From NCBI GenBank assembly GCA_049510745.1, contig JBEKYR010000073.1, positions 1 to 12,617 of the forward strand: a stretch of 12,617 nt of DNA, given 5' to 3'. The notes below the pieces were generated by a model that ran no database searches, was not told the origin of the DNA, and worked only from the letters and a program-made list of their open reading frames with translations. The position numbers and the translations under genes were made by a program. Below, one piece after another: positions 154 through 8,521 of this stretch. Position 1 is the first letter of the stretch. The number at the start of each line of letters is the position of its first letter. This stretch comes from Verrucomicrobiota bacterium. Its GTDB lineage: Bacteria; Verrucomicrobiota; Verrucomicrobiia; Limisphaerales; Palsa-1400.

Positions 154-1845
154 CTATTCGCGAACAAAGTCCGCGATTACGGCCGGCACCGTCGTGTCGA
201 AGCCGACCACGTCCAGCATGCCGCGGTCGTTCGGGTCGGCGAGGGTGAAGCCGTTGGAGGTCATGCCCACAACGACCGCCTTCGCGTCGCCGACGAACTC
301 GTCGCGATACTGGCGCAGGGCCTGGGCCGGATGAATGTTGCCCGCCCACGTCTCGCTGTCCGTGTAGGTGACAAACGCCGACACGTTCAGCTTGTTGCGG
401 GCGGCCCACACCATTGGCAGGGCGCAATCCGTGCCACCCATCGGGATGGCTTCGATGCGCTTGATAACCTCGGCCAGTCTCATGCGCGGCGAGAGGTTCA
501 CGCGGGTGATGCCCGGTTCGCCGCCGCCATGCATGCCGCCGTAACGACCCTGTGCCGGAGCCGAGAACGCGATGATCTCGCATTCCGGTTCGGTTGCAGC
601 CGTGATCAGTGCCATCGCGGCGCTGCCTTCGCGGGCCGAGATGCATGAACCCGCGATCATCGAAGCCGCCATTGAGCCGCTCACGTCCAGCGCCAGCAGC
701 ACCGGCTTGTCGCATGGTTCCACGTTCTGGAACGTCGCGTAAAACGCTTCGTCCAGAGCGTCCACCACGGCCGACACTGGCGACCACTTGAGCGCGCCCT
801 TGTCGCCATGGCCCTGGGCGTAGATTTTCTGCGCCACAAGGACCGCCAGCGGGTGGATGCGCGCACGCCTGAGCGCCGTCTCGTCACGCAGCTTGCGGAC
901 GACCAAACGCTTGGCGTCGCTGAAGGGAGCCAGCAGACCGAGGCCAGTCATCTTGCCGAGGTTGCGGATCATCGCCGTCATCGGCATGCGTTCAAGCAAG
1001 GCTTCCCACACAATGGCTTCATTGAGCCACTGCGTTGGGATGGCTTCACGCGGCAGATCGAATTCGTTAATGAGCTTCACGATTTCGCCTGCGCTCGAAG
1101 CGCGCTTGGCCTGCTCGAAGGCTTCGATGAGCTTCGGCAGTGCGCCGACCGCGCCATACTTGGCAACACGGTCTTCACCGCGCACCTTGCGCTTCACTTC
1201 ACGCTCACCTAGCGAATCCGCGCCGGCCAGCAACCAGCGGAAGACCGATTCGTGCTGGGGCGACGGAGCCTTCGGGTGGGCAAGGCGGAGCAAGTCGCCG
1301 TGAGACCAACCATCGCGCTGCTGATACTTCACCGCCTGGTGCGCGAGATCATCGGCATCGCGGTAAACATACCAGTCGCCAACTCCATTGCGCAGACCAC
1401 GGCCCCAGCCGCGCATGGCGTTCACGTATTCAGCGAAGTGGAACAGATGCGTGCCAATGCGGCAGACCTTGTTCAAGATCGCGAATGCGTGCGCCTTCGC
1501 CCGGGCGTCACCATGGGTGACGGCGAGTGCCAGGGCGAAGATGGCCGGATCATTCTTGGGCGCGCGGCCCGCATCGCTGATCTCAACGATGCGGTTGACG
1601 GCGCGCACGCCATCCGCCTTGATGCAACGGACAATCGCCTCGTGGTTCTGCTTCACCAGATCGCGTTCCGTGATGTAATACGTGCCACCCTCGGCGCCAA
1701 GGATGAGGAAACGGTCAAGCCGCGTCCAGTCATCCACTTCCCAGGAGAAGCCGCCACCGGAGTTGCGGATCTGGGTCGAACCCGGGATCGGCTGCAATTG
1801 GGGAGTGATGCGGCGATTGAACTGACGTGCGTAGTTGATAGCCAT
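154..1845 (-). CDS. rsr: Ro60 orthologue (TROVE domain plus vWA domain), 563 aa
   Basis: N-terminal NSGGGFSW..LDRFLILGAEGGTYY, KYQQRDGWSHGDLLRLAHP, vWA MIDAS DVSGSM, GGTDCALP, TDSETW, C-terminal GMLDVVGFD; SD AAGGAGG at 1851-1857; adjacent Y RNAs. Confidence 0.97.
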   Translation of the reverse strand: MAINYARQFNRRITPQLQPIPGSTQIRNSGGGFSWEVDDWTRLDRFLILGAEGGTYYITERDLVKQNHEAIVRCIKADGVRAVNRIVEISDAGRAPKNDPAIFALALAVTHGDARAKAHAFAILNKVCRIGTHLFHFAEYVNAMRGWGRGLRNGVGDWYVYRDADDLAHQAVKYQQRDGWSHGDLLRLAHPKAPSPQHESVFRWLLAGADSLGEREVKRKVRGEDRVAKYGAVGALPKLIEAFEQAKRASSAGEIVKLINEFDLPREAIPTQWLNEAIVWEALLERMPMTAMIRNLGKMTGLGLLAPFSDAKRLVVRKLRDETALRRARIHPLAVLVAQKIYAQGHGDKGALKWSPVSAVVDALDEAFYATFQNVEPCDKPVLLALDVSGSMAASMIAGSCISAREGSAAMALITAATEPECEIIAFSAPAQGRYGGMHGGGEPGITRVNLSPRMRLAEVIKRIEAIPMGGTDCALPMVWAARNKLNVSAFVTYTDSETWAGNIHPAQALRQYRDEFVGDAKAVVVGMTSNGFTLADPNDRGMLDVVGFDTTVPAVIADFVRE

Positions 1846-1904
1846 GGTGGCCTCCTTTATATGTGCGCGCCGCCAACTCCCGGCACGGGTTTTCTATCGG
1901 TTAA

Positions 1905-1973
1905 ACTGCGGACAAGTTGGTGAATGTGGGGTTGGTCATTTGAAGTGATAACCCATGTTCTTCGGCCCGCAGT
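1905..1973 (-). ncRNA. Y RNA, minimal 69 nt, no tRNA-like domain (YrlB-like)
   Basis: 5' ACUGCGGGCCGAAG...UGGGUUAUC and 3' CUUGUCCGCAGU form the terminal stem with the bulged-C Ro60 site; resembles the metazoan Y1 5' end GGUCCGAAG..GUGAGUUAUC. Confidence 0.85.
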
Positions 1974-1987
1974 CAATGAGCTTGCGA

Positions 1988-2235
1988 TTATTCGCGGAAA
2001 AAAGTGATTCCTGAGAGCGCCGTCATATCGGCCGGTGCGGAGACAACATTTCTTAAAAGCTGCGTCCAGAGCCGCATGGGCACAGGTCGTTCCGGCCCAG
2101 CTTTTCGCTGAGTTCCTAATTCCCGTGAACGAGGCGCACGCCGCGTTTCACCTGTGTTTCGGACGGGAAACCCTTGCGACGTTTGCCGGTGATTTCGAAA
2201 CTTGAGTCTTCCTGATCGTGAGCATGGTTTGACAT
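1988..2235 (-). CDS. Small SEC-C (Zn-binding) protein, recoded or pseudogenised (in-frame TAG, +1 shift)
   Basis: SD GGAGG at 2240-2244, ATG 2235: [59 protein letters not shown]. The +1 frame continues [19 protein letters not shown]. The 3' end is uncertain. Confidence 0.75.
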
Positions 2236-2265
2236 ACGGCCTCCTGGTTTGAGTGTTACGGTTGA

Positions 2266-2290
2266 TTCATCGCGGCCGCGCCGTGATGAA
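2266..2290. other. Hairpin between a Y RNA and the SEC-C ORF
   Basis: TTCATCGCGG-CCGCG-CCGTGATGAA inverted repeat. Confidence 0.5.
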
Positions 2291-2296
2291 ATTTCA

Positions 2297-2422
2297 GATG
2301 GGCAAGGGACGCCATGGAATTACTCCTTGCGGAGGCTGCTCTACCGTTGAGCTACTGCCCCTTCAAGGGGGCAGATCGGACTCGAACCGACAACCGACGA
2401 TAACCCACAACTTCGGCCCATC
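2297..2422 (-). ncRNA. yrlA: Y RNA, YrlA type (circularly permuted tRNA-like domain)
   Basis: GAUGGGCCGAAG..UGGGUUAUC / CUUGCCCAUC Ro stem; T arm GUCGG-UUCGAGU-CCGAU, loop-closed acceptor-like stem, D arm UAGCUCAACGGUAGAGC. Confidence 0.92.
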
Positions 2423-2430
2423 AAATCAAA

Positions 2431-2554
2431 AGCGGACAAGAATGCGACTGTGGAGTTGCCCAGTGTGCTGCCTTTAGACCACCGCGGAATCTTCCGCGGG
2501 GCGGAATTGAACCGCCACTGCCGGGCCCCGATAACCCACAATCTATGGCCTGCT
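2431..2554 (-). ncRNA. Y RNA, YrlA type
   Basis: AGCAGGCCAUAG..UGGGUUAUC / CUUGUCCGCU stem; T arm GGCGG-UUCAAUU-CCGCC; closed CCGCGGA/UCCGCGG stem; D-like UGGUCUAAAGGCAGCAC. Confidence 0.85.
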
Positions 2555-2563
2555 AAAGAGAAC

Positions 2564-2694
2564 CGACGGATAAGAAACGAACTGGAAATTAACGTGCTCT
2601 ACCACTGAGCTACCCCGGCATATGGAGCCGGAGGCGGGATTCGAACCCGCGTCCACGCGCTTCGTAGGCGATAACCCAATCCTGCGATCCGTCG
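2564..2694 (-). ncRNA. Y RNA, YrlA type
   Basis: CGACGGAUCGCAG..UGGGUUAUC / CUUAUCCGUCG stem (compensatory AU/AU change); T arm GCGGG-UUCGAAU-CCCGC; closed acceptor-like stem; D arm UAGCUCAGUGGUAGAGC. Confidence 0.9.
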
Positions 2695-2708
2695 AAAAGC
2701 TAAAAACA

Positions 2709-2816
2709 TAGACGGACAAGAGGCGAGGTGGAAATCCATCGGTTGCCCAATGGCGCGGGATTTGCATCCGCTCGCGGTTTCCCGCTTACGATAATCCAAA
2801 CTCAACGGCCCGTCTA
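2709..2816 (-). ncRNA. Y RNA with G55-type T arm and no D arm
   Basis: UAGACGGGCCGUUG..UGGAUUAUC / CUUGUCCGUCUA stem; GCGG-GAAA-CCGC hairpin, T-like GCGGA-UGCAAAU-CCCGC, CCAUUGG-GCAA-CCGAUGG hairpin. Confidence 0.8.
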
Positions 2817-2819
2817 AAT

Positions 2820-2896
2820 TGACGCTCCCGATGGGAATCGAACCCACGTTTCCCGGACTAAATCCGGACATTCTCTCGCGGTTGAACTACGGGAAT
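2820..2896 (-). tRNA. tRNA-like gene with UUA anticodon (ochre/amber suppressor-like, or pseudo-tRNA)
   Basis: Cloverleaf ATTCCCG/CGGGAGC, D stem GTTC/GAAT, anticodon arm TCCGG-ATTTAGT-CCGGG, T arm GTGGG-TTCGATT-CCCAT, G73, ends TCA rather than CCA. Confidence 0.7.
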
Positions 2897-2981
2897 ATCC
2901 GGCACCCTCCTGCTGAATGCAGCACGGATGTCGGACGCGGTCTGGTCCGAGACCAACCTAGGTTGCGCCTTCGGAAAGTTC

Positions 2982-3110
2982 AGATGGACAAGTGGCGTGA
3001 TCGAACGGAGGCACTCCATGCCGGGAATCGAACCCGGACCGCCAAGGCTTTCGCCACGGACGGTACGCCCTCCTTATGGTGGAGGATAAACGATCAACTT
3101 CGGCCCATCT
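2982..3110 (-). ncRNA. Y RNA with T arm and extra hairpins
   Basis: AGAUGGGCCGAAGUUGAUCGUUUAUC / CGAUCA..CUUGUCCAUCU stem; T arm CCGGG-UUCGAUU-CCCGG; additional GAAA-capped hairpin. Confidence 0.82.
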
Positions 3111-3114
3111 AAAT

Positions 3115-3190
3115 TGGTCAGGAAGTCGGGATTCGCACCCGAACCGTCGCGTTCACAACGCGGAATGCTGCTGTTACACCACAATCCTGA
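3115..3190 (-). tRNA. tRNA-His(GTG), atypical
   Basis: Anticodon loop TTGTGAA; T loop TGCGAAT; encoded CCA; A73 and no G-1:C73. Confidence 0.8.
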
Positions 3191-3197
3191 TATGAAA

Positions 3198-3273
3198 TGG
3201 AGCCCCGGGTCGGACTCGCACCGACGATTACGAGCTTACGAAACTCGCCCTGTCGCTTCTGAGGCACTGGGGC
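3198..3273 (-). tRNA. tRNA-Thr(CGT)
   Basis: CGAGT-TTCGTAA-GCTCG; GCC..GGC acceptor, U73, CCA; T loop TGCGAGT. Confidence 0.87.
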
Positions 3274-3277
3274 AAAA

Positions 3278-3355
3278 TGGTGTCCACGGCAGGAATCGCG
3301 CCTGCGACCTCCACCTTCGCGCGGTGGCGCTCTGATCTAACTGAGCTACGCGGAC
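3278..3355 (-). tRNA. tRNA-Arg(GCG)
   Basis: CCACC-GCGCGAA-GGTGG (G32, C33); T loop CGCGATT; CCA. Confidence 0.85.
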
Positions 3356-3358
3356 AAT

Positions 3359-3436
3359 TGGCATCCGTGATCGGACTCGCACCGATTAGGCCTGGCTTGA
3401 AAGACCGGCTGCTCGATCTGCTTTGCATTCACGGAC
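3359..3436 (-). tRNA. tRNA-Glu(TTC)
   Basis: Loop CTTTCAA; acceptor GTCCGTG/CACGGAT, G73, CCA; T loop TGCGAGT. Confidence 0.87.
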
Positions 3437-3440
3437 GAAA

Positions 3441-3515
3441 TGGCCCCCGAAGTTGGTATCGCGCCAACGTCTCCTCCTCTTCAGGGAGGCGCTAATCTGC
3501 CTCAGCTACTCGGGG
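3441..3515 (-). tRNA. tRNA-Phe(GAA)
   Basis: CCTCC-CTGAAGA-GGAGG; T loop CGCGATA; G73, CCA. Confidence 0.87.
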
Positions 3516-3552
3516 AAATGGCTCACTGAGCCGTAGCTTGGAGAGCGAAAAC

Positions 3553-3626
3553 TGGTCGTCCCGGCAGGTAACGCTCCTGCTTCTTCCGGTTATCGACCGG
3601 AGGCTCTGCTTTTGAGCTACGAGACG
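3553..3626 (-). tRNA. tRNA-Ile(GAT)
   Basis: TCCGG-TCGATAA-CCGGA (C33); T loop AGCGTTA; A73, CCA. Confidence 0.87.
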
Positions 3627-3772
3627 GTGGTTAATTGGGGCTTCAAGCCAAACCGCTTCGCGGGACGGAAAACGATATTCACCTTCCCGGTTGGCCGGAT
3701 TCGCATGGCGCGAAAAGGCTTGTAGCTCCTGCGAAAGAGCAATTGGCTTTGATACTGAAGAACGGTCTTCAT
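3617..3772 (-). CDS. Putative 51-aa basic small protein inside the tRNA array
   Basis: SD-like AAAGGAAAG just before ATG 3772; MKTVLQYQSQLLFRRSYKPFRAMRIRPTGKVNIVFRPAKRFGLKPQLTTVS; fills the largest gap in the array; the stop overlaps the tRNA-Ile 5' end. Confidence 0.45.
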   Translation of the reverse strand: MKTVLQYQSQLLFRRSYKPFRAMRIRPTGKVNIVFRPAKRFGLKPQLTTVS

Positions 3773-3800
3773 GGGCTTTCCTTTCGTTGAGGGTTAATAT

Positions 3801-3887
3801 TGGCGGATGGTGTAGGGATCGCACCCACGCAGCCCGCAGGCTCACTCGGTTTTCGGGACCGGGGCATTACTTCTCTGCCAACCATCC
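3801..3887 (-). tRNA. tRNA-Ser(CGA)
   Basis: Loop CCCGAAA (C33), long variable arm, GGATGGT/ACCATCC, G73, CCA; T loop TGCGATC. Confidence 0.9.
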
Positions 3888-3895
3888 GAGCAAAT

Positions 3896-3969
3896 TGGCT
3901 GCCAGACTTGGACTCGCACCAAGACAAGCGGCTTAACAGGCCGCCGTGCTACTTTGACACCACCTGGCA
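3896..3969 (-). tRNA. tRNA-Asn(GTT)
   Basis: GCGGC-CTGTTAA-GCCGC; U1-A72, G73, CCA; T loop TGCGAGT. Confidence 0.9.
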
Positions 3970-3970
3970 A

Positions 3971-4046
3971 TGGCGCTGCCGGCAGGATTCTCACCTGCAT
4001 CGATCCGCTTAGAAGACGGATGCCTGATATGTTCGGCCACGGCAGC
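3971..4046 (-). tRNA. tRNA-Arg(TCT)
   Basis: TCCGT-CTTCTAA-GCGGA; T loop TGAGAAT; G73, CCA. Confidence 0.9.
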
Positions 4047-4053
4047 ATGGAAA

Positions 4054-4129
4054 TGGTCGGAATGGCAGGATTTTCACCCGCGGCCTCCCGGTCCCAAGCC
4101 GGGTGCTCTGAAGACTGAGCTACATTCCG
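4054..4129 (-). tRNA. tRNA-Pro(TGG)
   Basis: CCCGG-CTTGGGA-CCGGG; C1-G72, A73, CCA; T loop TGAAAAT. Confidence 0.92.
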
Positions 4130-4136
4130 TGAAAAA

Positions 4137-4212
4137 TGGCGGACCCGAAGGGAGTTGCACCCTCAACCCTCCCGCAGACAACGGGGCGCTCTGCTGATTG
4201 AGCTACGAGTCC
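4137..4212 (-). tRNA. tRNA-Asp(GTC)
   Basis: Loop TTGTCTG (U37); GGA..TCC acceptor, G73, CCA; T loop TGCAACT. Confidence 0.87.
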
Positions 4213-4216
4213 GAAA

Positions 4217-4304
4217 TGGTGGGAAGTGCTGGTAACGCTCCAGTCGTCGCTTCCAGCTTGTTTGAAGACACCGGTTTTACAGACCGGCAGCCGGATCACT
4301 CCCT
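4217..4304 (-). tRNA. tRNA-Tyr(GTA), D arm essentially absent
   Basis: CCGGT-CTGTAAA-ACCGG; long variable arm; only about 10 nt between the acceptor and anticodon stems; T loop AGCGTTA; A73, CCA. Confidence 0.78.
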
Positions 4305-4309
4305 AAAAT

Positions 4310-4387
4310 TGGTAGCGGGGGCAGGAATCACACCTGCCTCAAACGGTTTATGAGACCGTCCTCTGTGCTTTAGTCGAGTTCCCCGCA
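4310..4387 (-). tRNA. tRNA-Met(CAT), initiator-like 1:72 mismatch
   Basis: ACGGT-CTCATAA-ACCGT; acceptor TGCGGGG/CCCCGCT with U1:U72; T loop TGTGATT; CCA. Confidence 0.85.
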
Positions 4388-4393
4388 GTGAAA

Positions 4394-4468
4394 TGGTGGA
4401 GTCGATGGGTAACGCTCCCATATCAACTTGCTTGCAAGGCAAGTGCATTACTTGTCTGCCACGACCCC
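4394..4468 (-). tRNA. tRNA-Ala(TGC)
   Basis: CTTGC-CTTGCAA-GCAAG; G3:U70 and A73 identity elements kept; T loop AGCGTTA; CCA. Confidence 0.92.
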
Positions 4469-4474
4469 GGAAAA

Positions 4475-4546
4475 TGGCAGGCTGCCTCCGTGCCGCCCGG
4501 AGTACGCTGAGTTTTGGAGACTCGGCCGCGTGCTGACGCTCAGCCT
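4475..4546 (-). tRNA. tRNA-Trp(CCA), shortened D arm
   Basis: Loop CTCCAAA; G73, CCA; D arm GCGT-CAGC-ACGC; T loop GGCGGCA. Confidence 0.8.
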
Positions 4547-4555
4547 GTGAATGAA

Positions 4556-4632
4556 TGGTGCGGCTGCCGGGAGTTGCGCCCGGACTTCCTTCGTGGCGGG
4601 GAGGCATTCTGCAAAGGTTAAATTACAACCGC
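4556..4632 (-). tRNA. tRNA-Gly(GCC)
   Basis: Loop CCGCCAC (C33); GCG..CGC acceptor; A73; T loop CGCAACT; CCA. Confidence 0.85.
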
Positions 4633-4643
4633 GGAAATTAAGA

Positions 4644-4671
4644 GGGCCGGGAGCGTTCAGGTTCCCGGCCC
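4644..4671. other. Strong hairpin just 5' of the first tRNA
   Basis: GGGCCGGGA...TCCCGGCCC inverted repeat with no long U-tract. Confidence 0.6.
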
Positions 4672-4981
4672 ATGCCATTTCAACAAAGAACAAACACCTC
4701 TTGGCGATCTACTCGATCCCAACCCGCGGTTTCACGGCGGCTGTTTCGGTGTTTAGGGGCACACCTCCTGCGAAGCCCTTAATATGTAAATCTAAAATTC
4801 GTTTCGTTCGTCTTGGTGACGCTGTCTTCTGGTCGTGGGCAGACCCCACCGGTGAGGCTTCTCTGCTCGTCCTCGCCAAAAACAATTTGTCGCCAAAAGA
4901 CATCACCTGGATGTCGCTCTATTTTTGCTCACAGATCGTTCGTCTTTCGTTATCTGCCATTCTCGTCTCAGTCATACAGGG

Positions 4982-5018
4982 AAAATAAAAAACCCTGCTT
5001 ACACGCGGTAAGCAGGGT
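4982..5018 (-). terminator. Intrinsic terminator of a transcription attenuator
   Basis: Minus strand ACCCTGCTTAC-CGCGT-GTAAGCAGGG-TTTTTTATTTT. Confidence 0.92.
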
Positions 5019-5040
5019 GAATAAATTCTCTTTCGATTCG

Positions 5041-5211
5041 TTACCTGCTTACAGCCAGTCTATCCAAATTGCCTTCGGGTTGCTCTCCAATAGGCACCAA
5101 GGATAGTCCAAGGCCAAACACATGGCCTTGGGTGTACCGGCTATGACGTGTCGCTTTCGCGACCGCCATTGTCGGCCAACTCGTGGCTGATATGCTTAAG
5201 CAAGTCTTCAT
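5041..5211 (-). CDS. Putative attenuator leader peptide, 56 aa
   Basis: MKTCLSISATSWPTMAVAKATRHSRYTQGHVFGLGLSLVPIGEQPEGNLDRLAVSR*; TAA immediately follows the antiterminator; no clear SD. Confidence 0.65.
   Translation of the reverse strand: MKTCLSISATSWPTMAVAKATRHSRYTQGHVFGLGLSLVPIGEQPEGNLDRLAVSR
5044..5053 (-). promoter_or_regulatory. Antiterminator strand
   Basis: TGTAAGCAGG is an exact copy of part of the terminator 3' arm, so it can pair with the 5' arm CCTGCTTAC (5008-5016); it lies in the last codons of the leader ORF. Confidence 0.8.
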
Positions 5212-5223
5212 CGAACTTAAAGA

Positions 5224-5283
5224 CGTATAGCACATGCCACTGGTTACATGCAAGAATTAATTTGAAAATTTTACAAATATTTT
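5224..5283 (-). promoter_or_regulatory. Candidate sigma70-type promoter with AT-rich UP element
   Basis: TTGCAT (5253-5248), 18 nt, then TATACG (5229-5224) preceded by TG-C; AT-rich tract 5254-5283; the -10 is imperfect. Confidence 0.45.
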
Positions 5284-5370
5284 GCGGGCGGGGCAGGTCC
5301 AACTGGAATTCACATATTCGGATTGGTTGATGCGAACGTCATTTATCCCAAGGTTTGGGAGGAAAGCAAC

Positions 5371-5973
5371 TCAGGCGACCGACTCCTTCCAGCGAGACCG
5401 CTGGGAAGGAGGCAAGTAGCCGAACAGGAGATCCATGCTTTCTTGGAAGGTGGTCTCAGGTTCGGCTTGCTGGCAATAGCGGTGGTACACTTCGCAGGCA
5501 TGGCGGCGCAGTTGTTCAACGGGCGCGGCACTCAAGCCGGCGTGGGCGAAGGTGCCGATGAGCATATCCAACAAAGGAACGAACTCGGCGTCGTCGAGGG
5601 GCTTTTGATCGTTGTAGCTGAACCAGTGATCGAGTTGGATTTTCCCGAACCGCAGCAAGGTGGTTTCCGTGTCTGTGGCCGAGTGGTTCTCGGTTTTGGG
5701 CGGAGGAGGGTGGATGATGGCAGTCTCCGTGGCACCGTGCAAAGGCGGCAGTTCTTCGGCGGGAAGGCGTAGCGTGATGCTTCGCGCCTGGCCCGGCACG
5801 CGAGAAATCAGCCCGCGTCGCTCCAGGGTCAAAATCATTTGATGCACGCTCGGAGGTGTGACCTGGAAGAATTGCATCATCTCCGCCTCCGCCGGCGGAC
5901 GCCCGTGCAGAGTGATGTAGTGGTTTATGTAGGCCAGGAACTGGCCTTGCCGCGAGGTATAGGGCGGTTTCAT
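5371..5973 (-). CDS. LexA-type winged-helix DNA-binding protein with unrelated C-terminal domain
   Basis: YTSRQGQFLAYINHY..GRPPAEAEM..F.VTPPSVHQMILTLERRGLISR.PGQARSI resembles the LexA N-terminal domain; no S24 peptidase domain is evident. Confidence 0.8.
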   Translation of the reverse strand: MKPPYTSRQGQFLAYINHYITLHGRPPAEAEMMQFFQVTPPSVHQMILTLERRGLISRVPGQARSITLRLPAEELPPLHGATETAIIHPPPPKTENHSATDTETTLLRFGKIQLDHWFSYNDQKPLDDAEFVPLLDMLIGTFAHAGLSAAPVEQLRRHACEVYHRYCQQAEPETTFQESMDLLFGYLPPSQRSRWKESVA

Positions 5974-7322: not shown

Positions 7323-7847
7323 TCAGGTTCCGGGCGTGGCGTCTGGCGGCAGCAGGCCCATCTGTTTGGCCAGTCCCAGCGAGACCACGAATCCATTCGA
7401 CAACTGCACATCCGTGAATGTGTCCACAAAAGCGCGTCGGCATAGGCCAGGTTCAGAGTGCTGGTGCAAGCGCAGCGTTCGTTCGATCTCGGTGGCTTTG
7501 CCCCCAACCGTTGTCTTTTTCACCTGGAAAAAATCGCAAATCGTGTCGAAAGTCAGATGCGCCGGCTGGCTTGGGTCAAAGAGGAAATTCATCCGTGCGA
7601 TAACGTGCGTCACGGAGGCTGCCCAGACGGTCGGGTTGCCCCGGCGGCAATCCAGACGTTTTGACCGGCAGACACGCTTCCAGAGATCGAGTGCGAAGCC
7701 CGTCAACTCCGGATCCAAATGTGCCGCGCCGAAACTCGTGATGCTGGCTGACACTTCGCAAAAGCGCTCCTGTTTTTCCTCTGCCACCCCAGCACTGTGT
7801 TTTGATTCCGCACCGATGCGGGACGAGTCGTTTTGGATTTCATTCAT
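7323..7847 (-). CDS. DUF6398-like protein
   Basis: WAASVTHVIARMNFLFDPSQPAHLTFDTICDFFQVKKTTVGGKATEI motif recognised from memory; ATG 7847 avoids overlap. Confidence 0.7.
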   Translation of the reverse strand: MNEIQNDSSRIGAESKHSAGVAEEKQERFCEVSASITSFGAAHLDPELTGFALDLWKRVCRSKRLDCRRGNPTVWAASVTHVIARMNFLFDPSQPAHLTFDTICDFFQVKKTTVGGKATEIERTLRLHQHSEPGLCRRAFVDTFTDVQLSNGFVVSLGLAKQMGLLPPDATPGT

Positions 7848-7912
7848 GAGATTGATCCTACCAGTCTGCCGGGCGGGTTCAAGCCAGTGATGCCAATTCA
7901 GCCATCTATTGT

Positions 7913-8521
7913 TTAATTGCGGGCGATTTCCTCCGCGAGCGGACGCATCCAAGCGGACAATTTGGGAGCGAGCAACGCCAAATCCTTCTTGGTCTTCGGA
8001 TCCAGATCCCGTTTCAGCCGTGCCACATGTTGTGACATCTCTGGGCTGCCGTGCAGATGGCGCAATGCCTGAATCACCAGGCCCGCCCGTCGGCCCGCTC
8101 CGATCAGATTCCGCGGCGCGGCTCGCCGAAAGTCCAGTATCAACTTCCCCAGCGATATTCGGCGAGGCACACCGTCTGTCAAAATGACGATTTTGGCCGG
8201 AACTTGCTCAGATAACCCGAGCGCATTTGCCGCGTAGGCCCCGGAGAACTGCCATTGCGCGTGGCTGCCGTTCATCAATGCACGCACCGTGGCCATGATG
8301 TCCGGTGCCGTCTGGCCGATGATCGGGTGTTGACGAGGCAAATCGTAAAGGCCCCGCCGAATCCGGCGAATCCTGCCGGCTTTGGCCAGCCGATGCAAGG
8401 CCACCCCCACCGCCGAACGGGCTCCCAAATCCAGGAAATCGCCCGGCGAAAACACGCTGCCTTGCCGGCTTCTGCGAATTCGGCTCAAAACCCTCTTATC
8501 CATGGTTTGCATCGTTTTCAT
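7913..8521 (-). CDS. DUF6088 family / AbiEi-like type IV antitoxin
   Basis: VFSPGDFLDLGARSAVGVALHRL..G.IRRIRRGLY and SGAYAANALGLSEQVPAKIVILTDG motifs. Confidence 0.85.
   Translation of the reverse strand: MKTMQTMDKRVLSRIRRSRQGSVFSPGDFLDLGARSAVGVALHRLAKAGRIRRIRRGLYDLPRQHPIIGQTAPDIMATVRALMNGSHAQWQFSGAYAANALGLSEQVPAKIVILTDGVPRRISLGKLILDFRRAAPRNLIGAGRRAGLVIQALRHLHGSPEMSQHVARLKRDLDPKTKKDLALLAPKLSAWMRPLAEEIARN

Follow-up and report, generated by a model that had tools for sequence, protein, structure and literature searches.

Comparative analysis places a tRNA gene with a stop-codon-type anticodon in a Verrucomicrobiota family of tRNA-shaped RNAs beside Y RNAs, probably with a structural or processing role

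Comparison of homologous loci assigns a tRNA-shaped RNA gene with UUA at its anticodon position to a family of such RNAs that appears specific to Verrucomicrobiota and resides within operons made up of a tRNA array, Y RNAs and rsr, the gene for the Ro60 orthologue. Almost always, 4-5 nt separate a family member from the 5' end of the Y RNA that follows. Because the anticodon loop changes freely across the family, the element probably has a part in structure or processing and does not work as a suppressor. Judged by the pattern of conservation, selection retains the tRNA body (T arm, 5-bp anticodon stem and D arm), together with four of the acceptor's pairs, all G-C, and a tail of the form G-(C/T)-C-A, but seemingly not the anticodon loop; a family that keeps such a body and a fixed place before a Y RNA while its loops are swapped is, on comparative grounds, not one of decoding tRNAs. 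The reading that we favour, and to which we give about even chances, is that of a non-decoding tRNA mimic which punctuates or partners the adjoining Y RNA. An earlier note on the locus had offered a stress-induced suppressor, a nuclease decoy or Ro60 ligand, and a decayed tRNA; among these readings the non-translational one, a tRNA mimic tied to Y RNA and Ro60, would best fit the family data.

Results

Genomic setting

The window, by which we mean the whole 12,617-nt stretch of DNA that was analysed, is contig C73 of a 5.6-Mb genome. The element is flanked by two Y-RNA units; a tRNA array precedes this group and rsr follows it, with all of these components on the minus strand (Table 1). A terminator-like hairpin lies upstream of the array, and no other convincing minus-strand terminator was found between this hairpin and rsr; a scan of positions 1800-5400 for sigma-70-like promoters returned 0 sites (shuffle mean 1.7). 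The first Y-RNA unit scores 46.8 bits against RF01053, under the gathering score of 80, and is separated from the element by a spacer that can form two hairpins; in homologues of the CACCCCG type, the 3' end of the upstream Y RNA is only 3 nt before the element. The second unit begins 4 nt (ATTT) past the TCA tail. The ends of the element pair as a tRNA acceptor helix, stems of the Ro60 type belonging instead to the flanking units, and rsr is found ~1 kb downstream on the same strand, inside the limit of about 4 kb that was applied to RNAs of the YrlA type. A contig from a DNA run is identical to the window across 2622-3172, the element included.

Table 1. Features of the RNA region and its downstream genes (window coordinates)
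Feature	Position	Strand	Basis
Terminator-like hairpin, upstream of the array	4992..5018	-	terminator scan
Array of 10 ARAGORN-called tRNA genes	3115..4468	-	ARAGORN
Additional array tRNA	3556-3626	-	Rfam tRNA match
Y-RNA unit 1; 5' AGATGGGCCGAAG, 3' CTTGTCCATCT, internal T arm GGTTCGATTCC	2982..3110	-	RF01053
85-nt spacer with two hairpins, from Y-RNA unit 1 to the element	2897..2981	-	sequence/fold
tRNA-shaped RNA gene, UUA at anticodon position	2896..2820	-	ARAGORN, Rfam, homologues
TTA triplet, anticodon positions 34-36	2859..2861	-	sequence, ARAGORN
Y-RNA unit 2, closing stem AGACGGGCC/GTCCGTCT	2710..2815	-	sequence; junction common to homologues
YrlA-like Y RNA	2564..2678	-	RF02553, 44.5 bits, under gathering score 69
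Further Y-RNA unit, T arm GGTTCGAGTCC	2293..2425 (ends approximate)	-	RF02553, 35.5 bits over 2335-2398
Small SEC-C-motif gene	1990..2235 (3' end approximate)	-	profile and homologous loci
Short Y-RNA unit, stem-bulge type, right before rsr	1905..1975	-	RF01656, 38.2 bits, gathering score 38
rsr, Ro60 orthologue, TROVE and Ro60 vWA domains	154..1845	-	domain search

The scattered tRNA genes of this genome form a complete set, Gln, Lys, Glu and Sec included, and beside this full housekeeping set stand 23 array genes, in pieces on contigs C73, C74 and C75, an arrangement which, with the patchy distribution of the element (4 of 31 family genomes), agrees with that of genes in an L-array (long tRNA array). 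The absence of Gln and Lys tRNAs from the array, to which the earlier note drew attention, holds for this contig alone: an array-type tRNA-Gln(ttg) is present on C75, and arrays of relatives contain tRNA-Lys(ttt). Profile searches found both RF1 and RF2 above the curated cut-offs, and the host therefore terminates at all three stop codons.

Upstream of the array, the minus strand encodes a LexA-type DNA-binding protein (5371-5973), a DUF6398 protein (7323-7952) and a DUF6088/AbiEi-like protein (7913-8521), possibly regulators or mobile-element neighbours of the RNA operon.

Structure of the element

The acceptor stem consists of ATTCCCG and CGGGAGC, with six of the seven pairs formed; A1 faces C72 and U2-G71 is a wobble pair. 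The D arm has a 4-bp stem (GTTC/GAAT) and a 10-nt loop without GG, so that G18G19 is missing, while the anticodon stem (TCCGG/CCGGG) bears the loop ATTTAGT (AUUUAGU), which comprises U33, the triplet UUA, G37 and the A32/U38 pair of residues. A variable loop of 4 nt is followed by a T arm of GTGGG-TTCGATT-CCCAT with a canonical T loop, and the 3' end reads G73 and then TCA in place of CCA. The loop centred on TTA, the A1:C72 mismatch, G73, A32-U38 and the TCA end had all been pointed out beforehand, and each is present in the sequence. The triplet is complementary to a stop codon, as a suppressor would require.

ARAGORN names the gene tRNA-Stop(tta) and places it at 2821-2897, in a register shifted by one base. 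The Rfam tRNA model matches the element with 41.7 bits (gathering score 29, E 3.9e-6), and neither RF02553 nor RF01053 gave a match on 2820-2896. The cloverleaf is the minimum free energy fold, with a z-score of 0.13 and 106 of 200 shuffled sequences folding equally well; because the folding energy is no better than that of shuffles, support for the structure comes from the covariance model and the homologues, not from energy. Descent from tRNA-Sec, considered on account of a shared 18-nt T-arm string, was rejected as weak, as the D arm, variable arm and acceptor differ.

The T loop distinguishes the element from the array that precedes it. In the 22 other array tRNA genes on C73-C75, T-loop position 55 is G (the forms being TGCGA, CGCGA, AGCGT, TGAGA, TGAAA and TGCAA), the D loop has no GG, and an encoded CCA is kept in nearly all, including every array gene of the window. 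The TTC T loop of the element does not match these tRNAs; it matches the tRNA-like modules of the Y RNAs. The earlier note had called the element the only tRNA gene here with a canonical TTCGA T loop, which is correct for the 11 ARAGORN-called genes of the window and for all 23 array genes on C73-C75; among the Y-RNA units of the window, however, GGTTCGA(N)TCC is present in three and GGTTCAATTCC in one more. The TGC triplet seen among the array T loops is also that of the staphylococcal non-proteogenic tRNAGly genes, described as having TGC where TTC is expected (PMC7826273), and the array may constitute a whole tRNA set with a re-wired elbow.

A family with interchangeable loops

Homologues were sought with a 20-nt D-arm pattern in genomes, metagenome contigs and viral contigs. 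With one genome per species the pattern found 11 loci, 10 of them in records of Verrucomicrobiota, Verrucomicrobiae or Limisphaerales; the remaining one, in a Rhodospirillales record, has no tRNA-like fold. Variants with one mismatch contributed 4 more loci. An order-wide search with three mismatches matched 250 of 401 genomes, and only matches with zero or one mismatch were used, because a reversed-pattern control matched about equally often. Metagenome contigs yielded at least 120 loci, of which 80 were listed, so the family sample is biased and incomplete; the viral contigs yielded 0 loci. Among the matches listed, the usable family comprises 94 loci and 77 distinct sequences, and all named ones belong to Verrucomicrobiota.

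The window copy has a 7-nt loop with U33 and a purine at position 37, features that are not kept across its homologues: among the matches listed, 29 of the 77 distinct sequences have a 7-nt loop with U33. The residue is present in this class by definition, and a purine 37 occurs in nearly all of the 29 (loci L126 and L160 have T). Stop-type triplets account for 21 of them (UCA in 12, UUA in 9) and sense triplets for 8 (UCC twice; UCG, UGA, UGU, UAA, CCA and AAA once each), again among the matches listed. The remaining 48 of the 77 distinct homologues in the same sample offer no usable anticodon loop: 7-nt loops that lack U33 are seen in 11 and 8-nt loops in 16, and the loop is shortened in the other 21, taking in 13 of them (22 loci) the form of a GNRA tetraloop (GAAA, GAGA, GCAA, GCGA or GUAA). 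Our own loop parser identified UUA in the metagenome loci L144, L122, L094 and L118/L154, and across the family the triplet is carried by four different acceptor types; the ATTCCCG acceptor type, that of the window copy, is also seen with GAGA or GCAA tetraloops. Used as an independent classifier on the matches listed, ARAGORN recognises a tRNA in 32 of 76 distinct sequences, assigning tca to 9, tta to 8, sense triplets to 8 and 'anticodons' of odd length to 7. All 10 members that were tested against the Rfam tRNA model, tetraloop forms included, pass its gathering score, with 32-49.5 bits.

A subgroup formed by L081 (genome G323), L040, L106, L129, L162 and L138 has 8-nt loops, mostly ACGCAAGU, and no CCA tail. 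Its T arm is altered by compensatory substitutions, GCAGG/CCTGC.

Conservation of the tRNA body and its position

Pairing was counted over 71 aligned sequences. The anticodon stem is 96.6% paired and shows changes on both sides in all five pairs, and the T stem is 98.6% paired; none of 500 shuffles reached the observed covariation. The T loop is almost invariant, though it was outside the search pattern, whereas invariance of the D arm arises by construction because that arm was the pattern itself. The D loop of the family reads AAC-N-GCGA-(G/T)-A, and GG occurs in no member. When the acceptor is read in the standard register, 64 of the 71 sequences lack pair 1:72, 51 lack 2:71 and 52 lack 3:70. 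A register with one bulged base and no discriminator, in which the helix is 83% paired, is the better fit family-wide, its pair 2-74 alternating between GC (22), AU (20) and CG (4); only the subtype of the window conforms to the standard register. Most members end in G-C-C-A or G-T-C-A and, as G-T-C-A recurs in many homologues, the TCA tail of the window copy does not appear to be a private lesion.

A Y-RNA 5' motif is found no more than 30 nt past the tail in 57 of 82 distinct loci, usually in the form CCA-ATTT-(A/C)-GACGGGCCG, and the 3' end of a Y RNA no more than 34 nt upstream of the element in 21 of 82.

The history of the loop was followed on a quick maximum-likelihood tree of 84 distinct rows, built with the loop masked and the flanks included, in which 15 of 81 branches are well supported. 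UCA is scattered over this tree, its 12 rows needing 11 changes (shuffled mean 11.4), while UUA needs 7 changes, at least 3 of which are forced by supported branches. The clade that contains the window copy (SH-aLRT 99, 7 rows) has UUA in five rows, AAA in one and a 6-nt loop in one. UCA is probably the ancestral loop state of the family, and UUA is one C-to-U transition away from it. Among the matches listed, the stop-type share of the canonical loops, 21 of 29, is striking and finds no explanation in the punctuation idea; an excess over neutral expectation cannot be claimed, because the tree is so poorly resolved.

Close orthologues and distribution

The 2.8-kb RNA region was matched in 32 of 41 related genomes. 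Of 20 loci examined, 4 have an ARAGORN-called tta gene at the equivalent position (two in G022 and one each in G020 and G012), and UUA is unchanged in the alignment of these four close orthologous loci from three genomes. Conservation of TTA, which the earlier note had proposed as a check, thus extends to these loci, but not to the family, where the loop varies and sense triplets are included. Substitutions in the stems of the close orthologues preserve pairing (27:43 from U-G to C-G; 30:40 and 7:66 from G-C to G-U), three of the four copies end in G-C-C-A, and T-loop position 57 is G, A or C.

Across 31 family genomes the full-length element is present in 4 and absent from 27. The G014 locus has flanks 83-91% identical to the window, and there 177 nt, as against 321 nt in the window, cover Y-RNA unit 1, the element and the start of Y-RNA unit 2; ARAGORN found no tta gene at this locus. 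From such comparisons the element is conserved where it is present, yet appears dispensable.

Contigs assembled from RNA libraries (three runs from three studies) cover most of positions 1800-4600 at 90-99% identity, and one of 544 nt spans 2682-3117 at about 91%. The sole difference within the element among the RNA-library matches listed is G>A at 2848. These data show that the sequence of the element occurs in RNA libraries; being assembled contigs, in which DNA may be present, they are blind to strand and CCA addition, and nothing follows from them on ends, charging or level.

A frameshift site in the neighbouring SEC-C gene

The small SEC-C gene begins with ATG at 2235..2233 on the minus strand and contains an in-frame TAG at 2118..2116 and a shift site, TTT TAA, at 2058..2053. 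The first half of its zinc motif is encoded in frame 0 up to UUU UAA G, and the second half (FK[KN]CC...GR[YF]DG) in the +1 frame. Seven other loci share TTT TAA G, and two have TTT CAA G. In locus L017, stepping by one base at the site gives a protein that aligns with the SEC-C profile over its full length, shift site included (39 bits, positions 1-19 of 19). On this comparative evidence, the UUU-UAA-G site is likely to be a conserved programmed +1 frameshift of the prfB type; none of the best matches of a literature search joined 'SEC-C motif' with frameshift. The in-frame TAG occupies a conserved Lys codon and is confined to this genome, all 9 other full-length homologous loci having AAG or AAA.

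The loop triplet of the element shows no covariation with the UAA of the neighbouring frameshift site. Compared with the stop codon of rsr (TAG, TGA or TAA), it shows no pattern in the few loci that reach the end of that gene. A quadruplet reading was also considered, the 8-nt loop of L081 containing CUUA, complementary to the UAAG of the shift site; it was rejected as a general explanation, since the other 8-nt loops do not match.

Discussion

A tRNA mimic of the Y-RNA module

From the family membership, conservation pattern, position and loop variability described above, we infer the following role. The operon would be transcribed as one precursor, in which the tRNA body of the element would be recognised by tRNA-end processing, with RNase P acting at the 5' side and a 3' endonuclease or trimming at the tail. 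Excision would free both flanking Y RNAs, the upstream one at its 3' end and the downstream one at its 5' end, and the Ro60/Y-RNA machinery may in addition take up the released mimic as a ligand. The UUA triplet would have no decoding role, and the element would remain uncharged.

In tRNA punctuation, and in the case of the mascRNA of MALAT1, a tRNA-shaped fold is cut out by the enzymes that process tRNA ends and thereby defines the ends of neighbouring non-coding RNAs. The mechanism proposed here is the same; those cases are mitochondrial or eukaryotic, whereas here it is suggested for bacterial genes, and we know of no end-defining tRNA-like role described for bacterial Y RNAs. Were this reading correct, the elements would form a separate class of Y-RNA-tied tRNA mimic, a bacterial example of a tRNA-shaped fold that sets the ends of non-coding RNAs, and, after spare tRNAs and Y RNAs, a third component of Ro60 operons in PVC bacteria. 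Annotation pipelines would, in that case, continue to mislabel them as 'tRNA-Sup', 'tRNA-SeC' or pseudo-tRNA in soil Verrucomicrobiota.

Several observations fit the mimic reading less well. U33, purine 37 and the stop triplets are more tRNA-like than a pure processing signal needs, and the close orthologues hold UUA through substitutions that preserve pairing. The in-frame TAG at the conserved Lys codon of the small SEC-C gene occurs in this genome only, and a UUA tRNA wobbling to UAG could mask it.

Alternative explanations

One alternative is a lineage-specific working ochre/amber suppressor. Such a tRNA would be expressed together with the stress operon, have its end restored to CCA, accept an amino acid, perhaps Gln, and decode UAA as well as, through wobble, UAG. 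We regard such a suppressor as unlikely. The complete cloverleaf, in which U33, G37 and a canonical T loop are all present, the recurrence of UUA in four more genome loci (three genomes) and in metagenome loci on four acceptor types, the pairing retained through stem substitutions, and TAG in the SEC-C gene against AAG/AAA in 9 of 9 other full-length homologous loci all speak for decoding, and the 1:72 mismatch with G73 resembles the classic glutamine-mischarging changes of su+3 tRNATyr. Yet the same clade (99% support) includes sisters with AAA and with a 6-nt loop, members with the very same ATTCCCG-type acceptor bear GAGA or GCAA tetraloops, G18G19 is missing, the window copy ends in TCA, and T-loop position 57 drifts between G, A and C in close orthologues. 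Nor is a consistent target apparent: the UUU-UAA site is unchanged across loci whose elements have UUA, UCA, tetraloops or 8-nt loops, and one UUA-bearing locus has CAA at the neighbouring shift site. RF1 and RF2 are both encoded, and 27 of 31 family genomes do without the element. Variable or sense anticodons in orthologues, which the earlier note had named as the outcome that would speak against its suppressor, are what the family displays, and a dedicated suppressor is not supported because the anticodon loops of homologues vary or are sense.

Loop variability would be expected of a decoy or sponge that draws tRNA-targeting nucleases, or decay of the Ro60/PNPase type, away from real tRNAs, because the loop would change in an arms race. 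A hypervariable loop atop a conserved scaffold, in an rsr/Y-RNA operon beside a spare tRNA array, is consistent with this idea, and a sponge role was raised for the L-array tRNAs of Anabaena by the authors of that work (PMC8421152). It is nevertheless improbable here, given that, among the matches listed, the 13 members with GNRA tetraloops and the 16 with 8-nt loops would mimic no anticodon loop, and that no linked nuclease gene is found within the window.

It is very unlikely, to our mind, that the family acts as a stop-codon-directed A-site ligand, supplied by the Ro60/spare-tRNA stress operon, which competes with release factors and tunes termination, read-through or frameshifting. True loops would then be held at UCA or UUA and the others disabled because the RNAs reach the ribosome, and the neighbouring SEC-C gene, with its +1 shift at UUU-UAA, is a possible target. 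The excess of stop triplets and the adjacent +1 site at UAA make this a concrete locus at which to ask whether tRNA mimics contact terminating ribosomes.

Simple decay, that is, a functionless tRNA pseudogene left over from a horizontally acquired array, would account for the variable loop, acceptor top and tail and for the sporadic distribution, and PVC bacteria are reported with degenerate tRNA clusters and many partly degraded tRNAs (PMC4807772), but it is highly improbable: the T arm is near-invariant although not searched for, the anticodon stem covaries at all five pairs, the bulged acceptor register covaries as well (one pair being GC in 22 and AU in 20), at least 57 of 82 distinct loci preserve the position ahead of a Y RNA, and true wrecks, such as L034, L121 and L160 with their broken T arms, look different.

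Relation to known systems

The preferred reading, of a tRNA mimic joined to the Y-RNA module, has its nearest precedent in the Y RNAs of the YrlA type, which are described as mimicking tRNA and as substrates of tRNA-recognising enzymes such as RNase P (Chen et al. 2014, PMC4201824). Like YrlA (RF02553), the element is a tRNA mimic with a canonical T arm; both map 1-3 kb from rsr, on its strand and among successive Y RNAs. In YrlA, as characterised there, the tRNA-like module is nested in the Ro60-binding stem and has no anticodon arm; the element, by contrast, stands by itself between two Y RNAs as a complete cloverleaf, ends in a G-(C/T)-C-A tail and has no Ro60-binding stem, and Rfam finds only tRNA there.

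L-arrays have been described for several phyla, Verrucomicrobia among them, and that of Anabaena is induced by translational stress together with rtcB; the neighbourhoods of cyanobacterial L-arrays are reported to include RNA-repair genes (PMC8421152). The element resembles such genes in that it closes a row of supernumerary, odd tRNA genes that lie on one strand and are sporadically distributed. It differs in its TTC T loop, which sets it apart from the 22 other array genes of this genome, in its unconserved anticodon loop and in being tied to the Y RNA and not to the array proper. Degenerate tRNA gene clusters are reported for Planctomycetes (PMC4807772), and a survey gives suppressor-type tRNAs as absent from array units, as far as its account of those units goes (PMC4758250). 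Among the best matches of a literature search, none brought tRNA arrays in the bacterial sense together with Y RNA or Ro60; the sole co-mention is in a mouse study of extracellular vesicles.

Other array-type tRNA genes

A stand-alone tRNA-Glu(ctc) gene on contig C34 (35893-35964, plus strand), outside the arrays, has the array-type T loop TGCGATT and a D loop without GG. The array member called as tRNA-Leu(gag) on contig C75 (4792-4868) has C33, a variable arm that is short and a tail that reads TCC; it is similar in its D arm to the element, of which it may be a paralogue.
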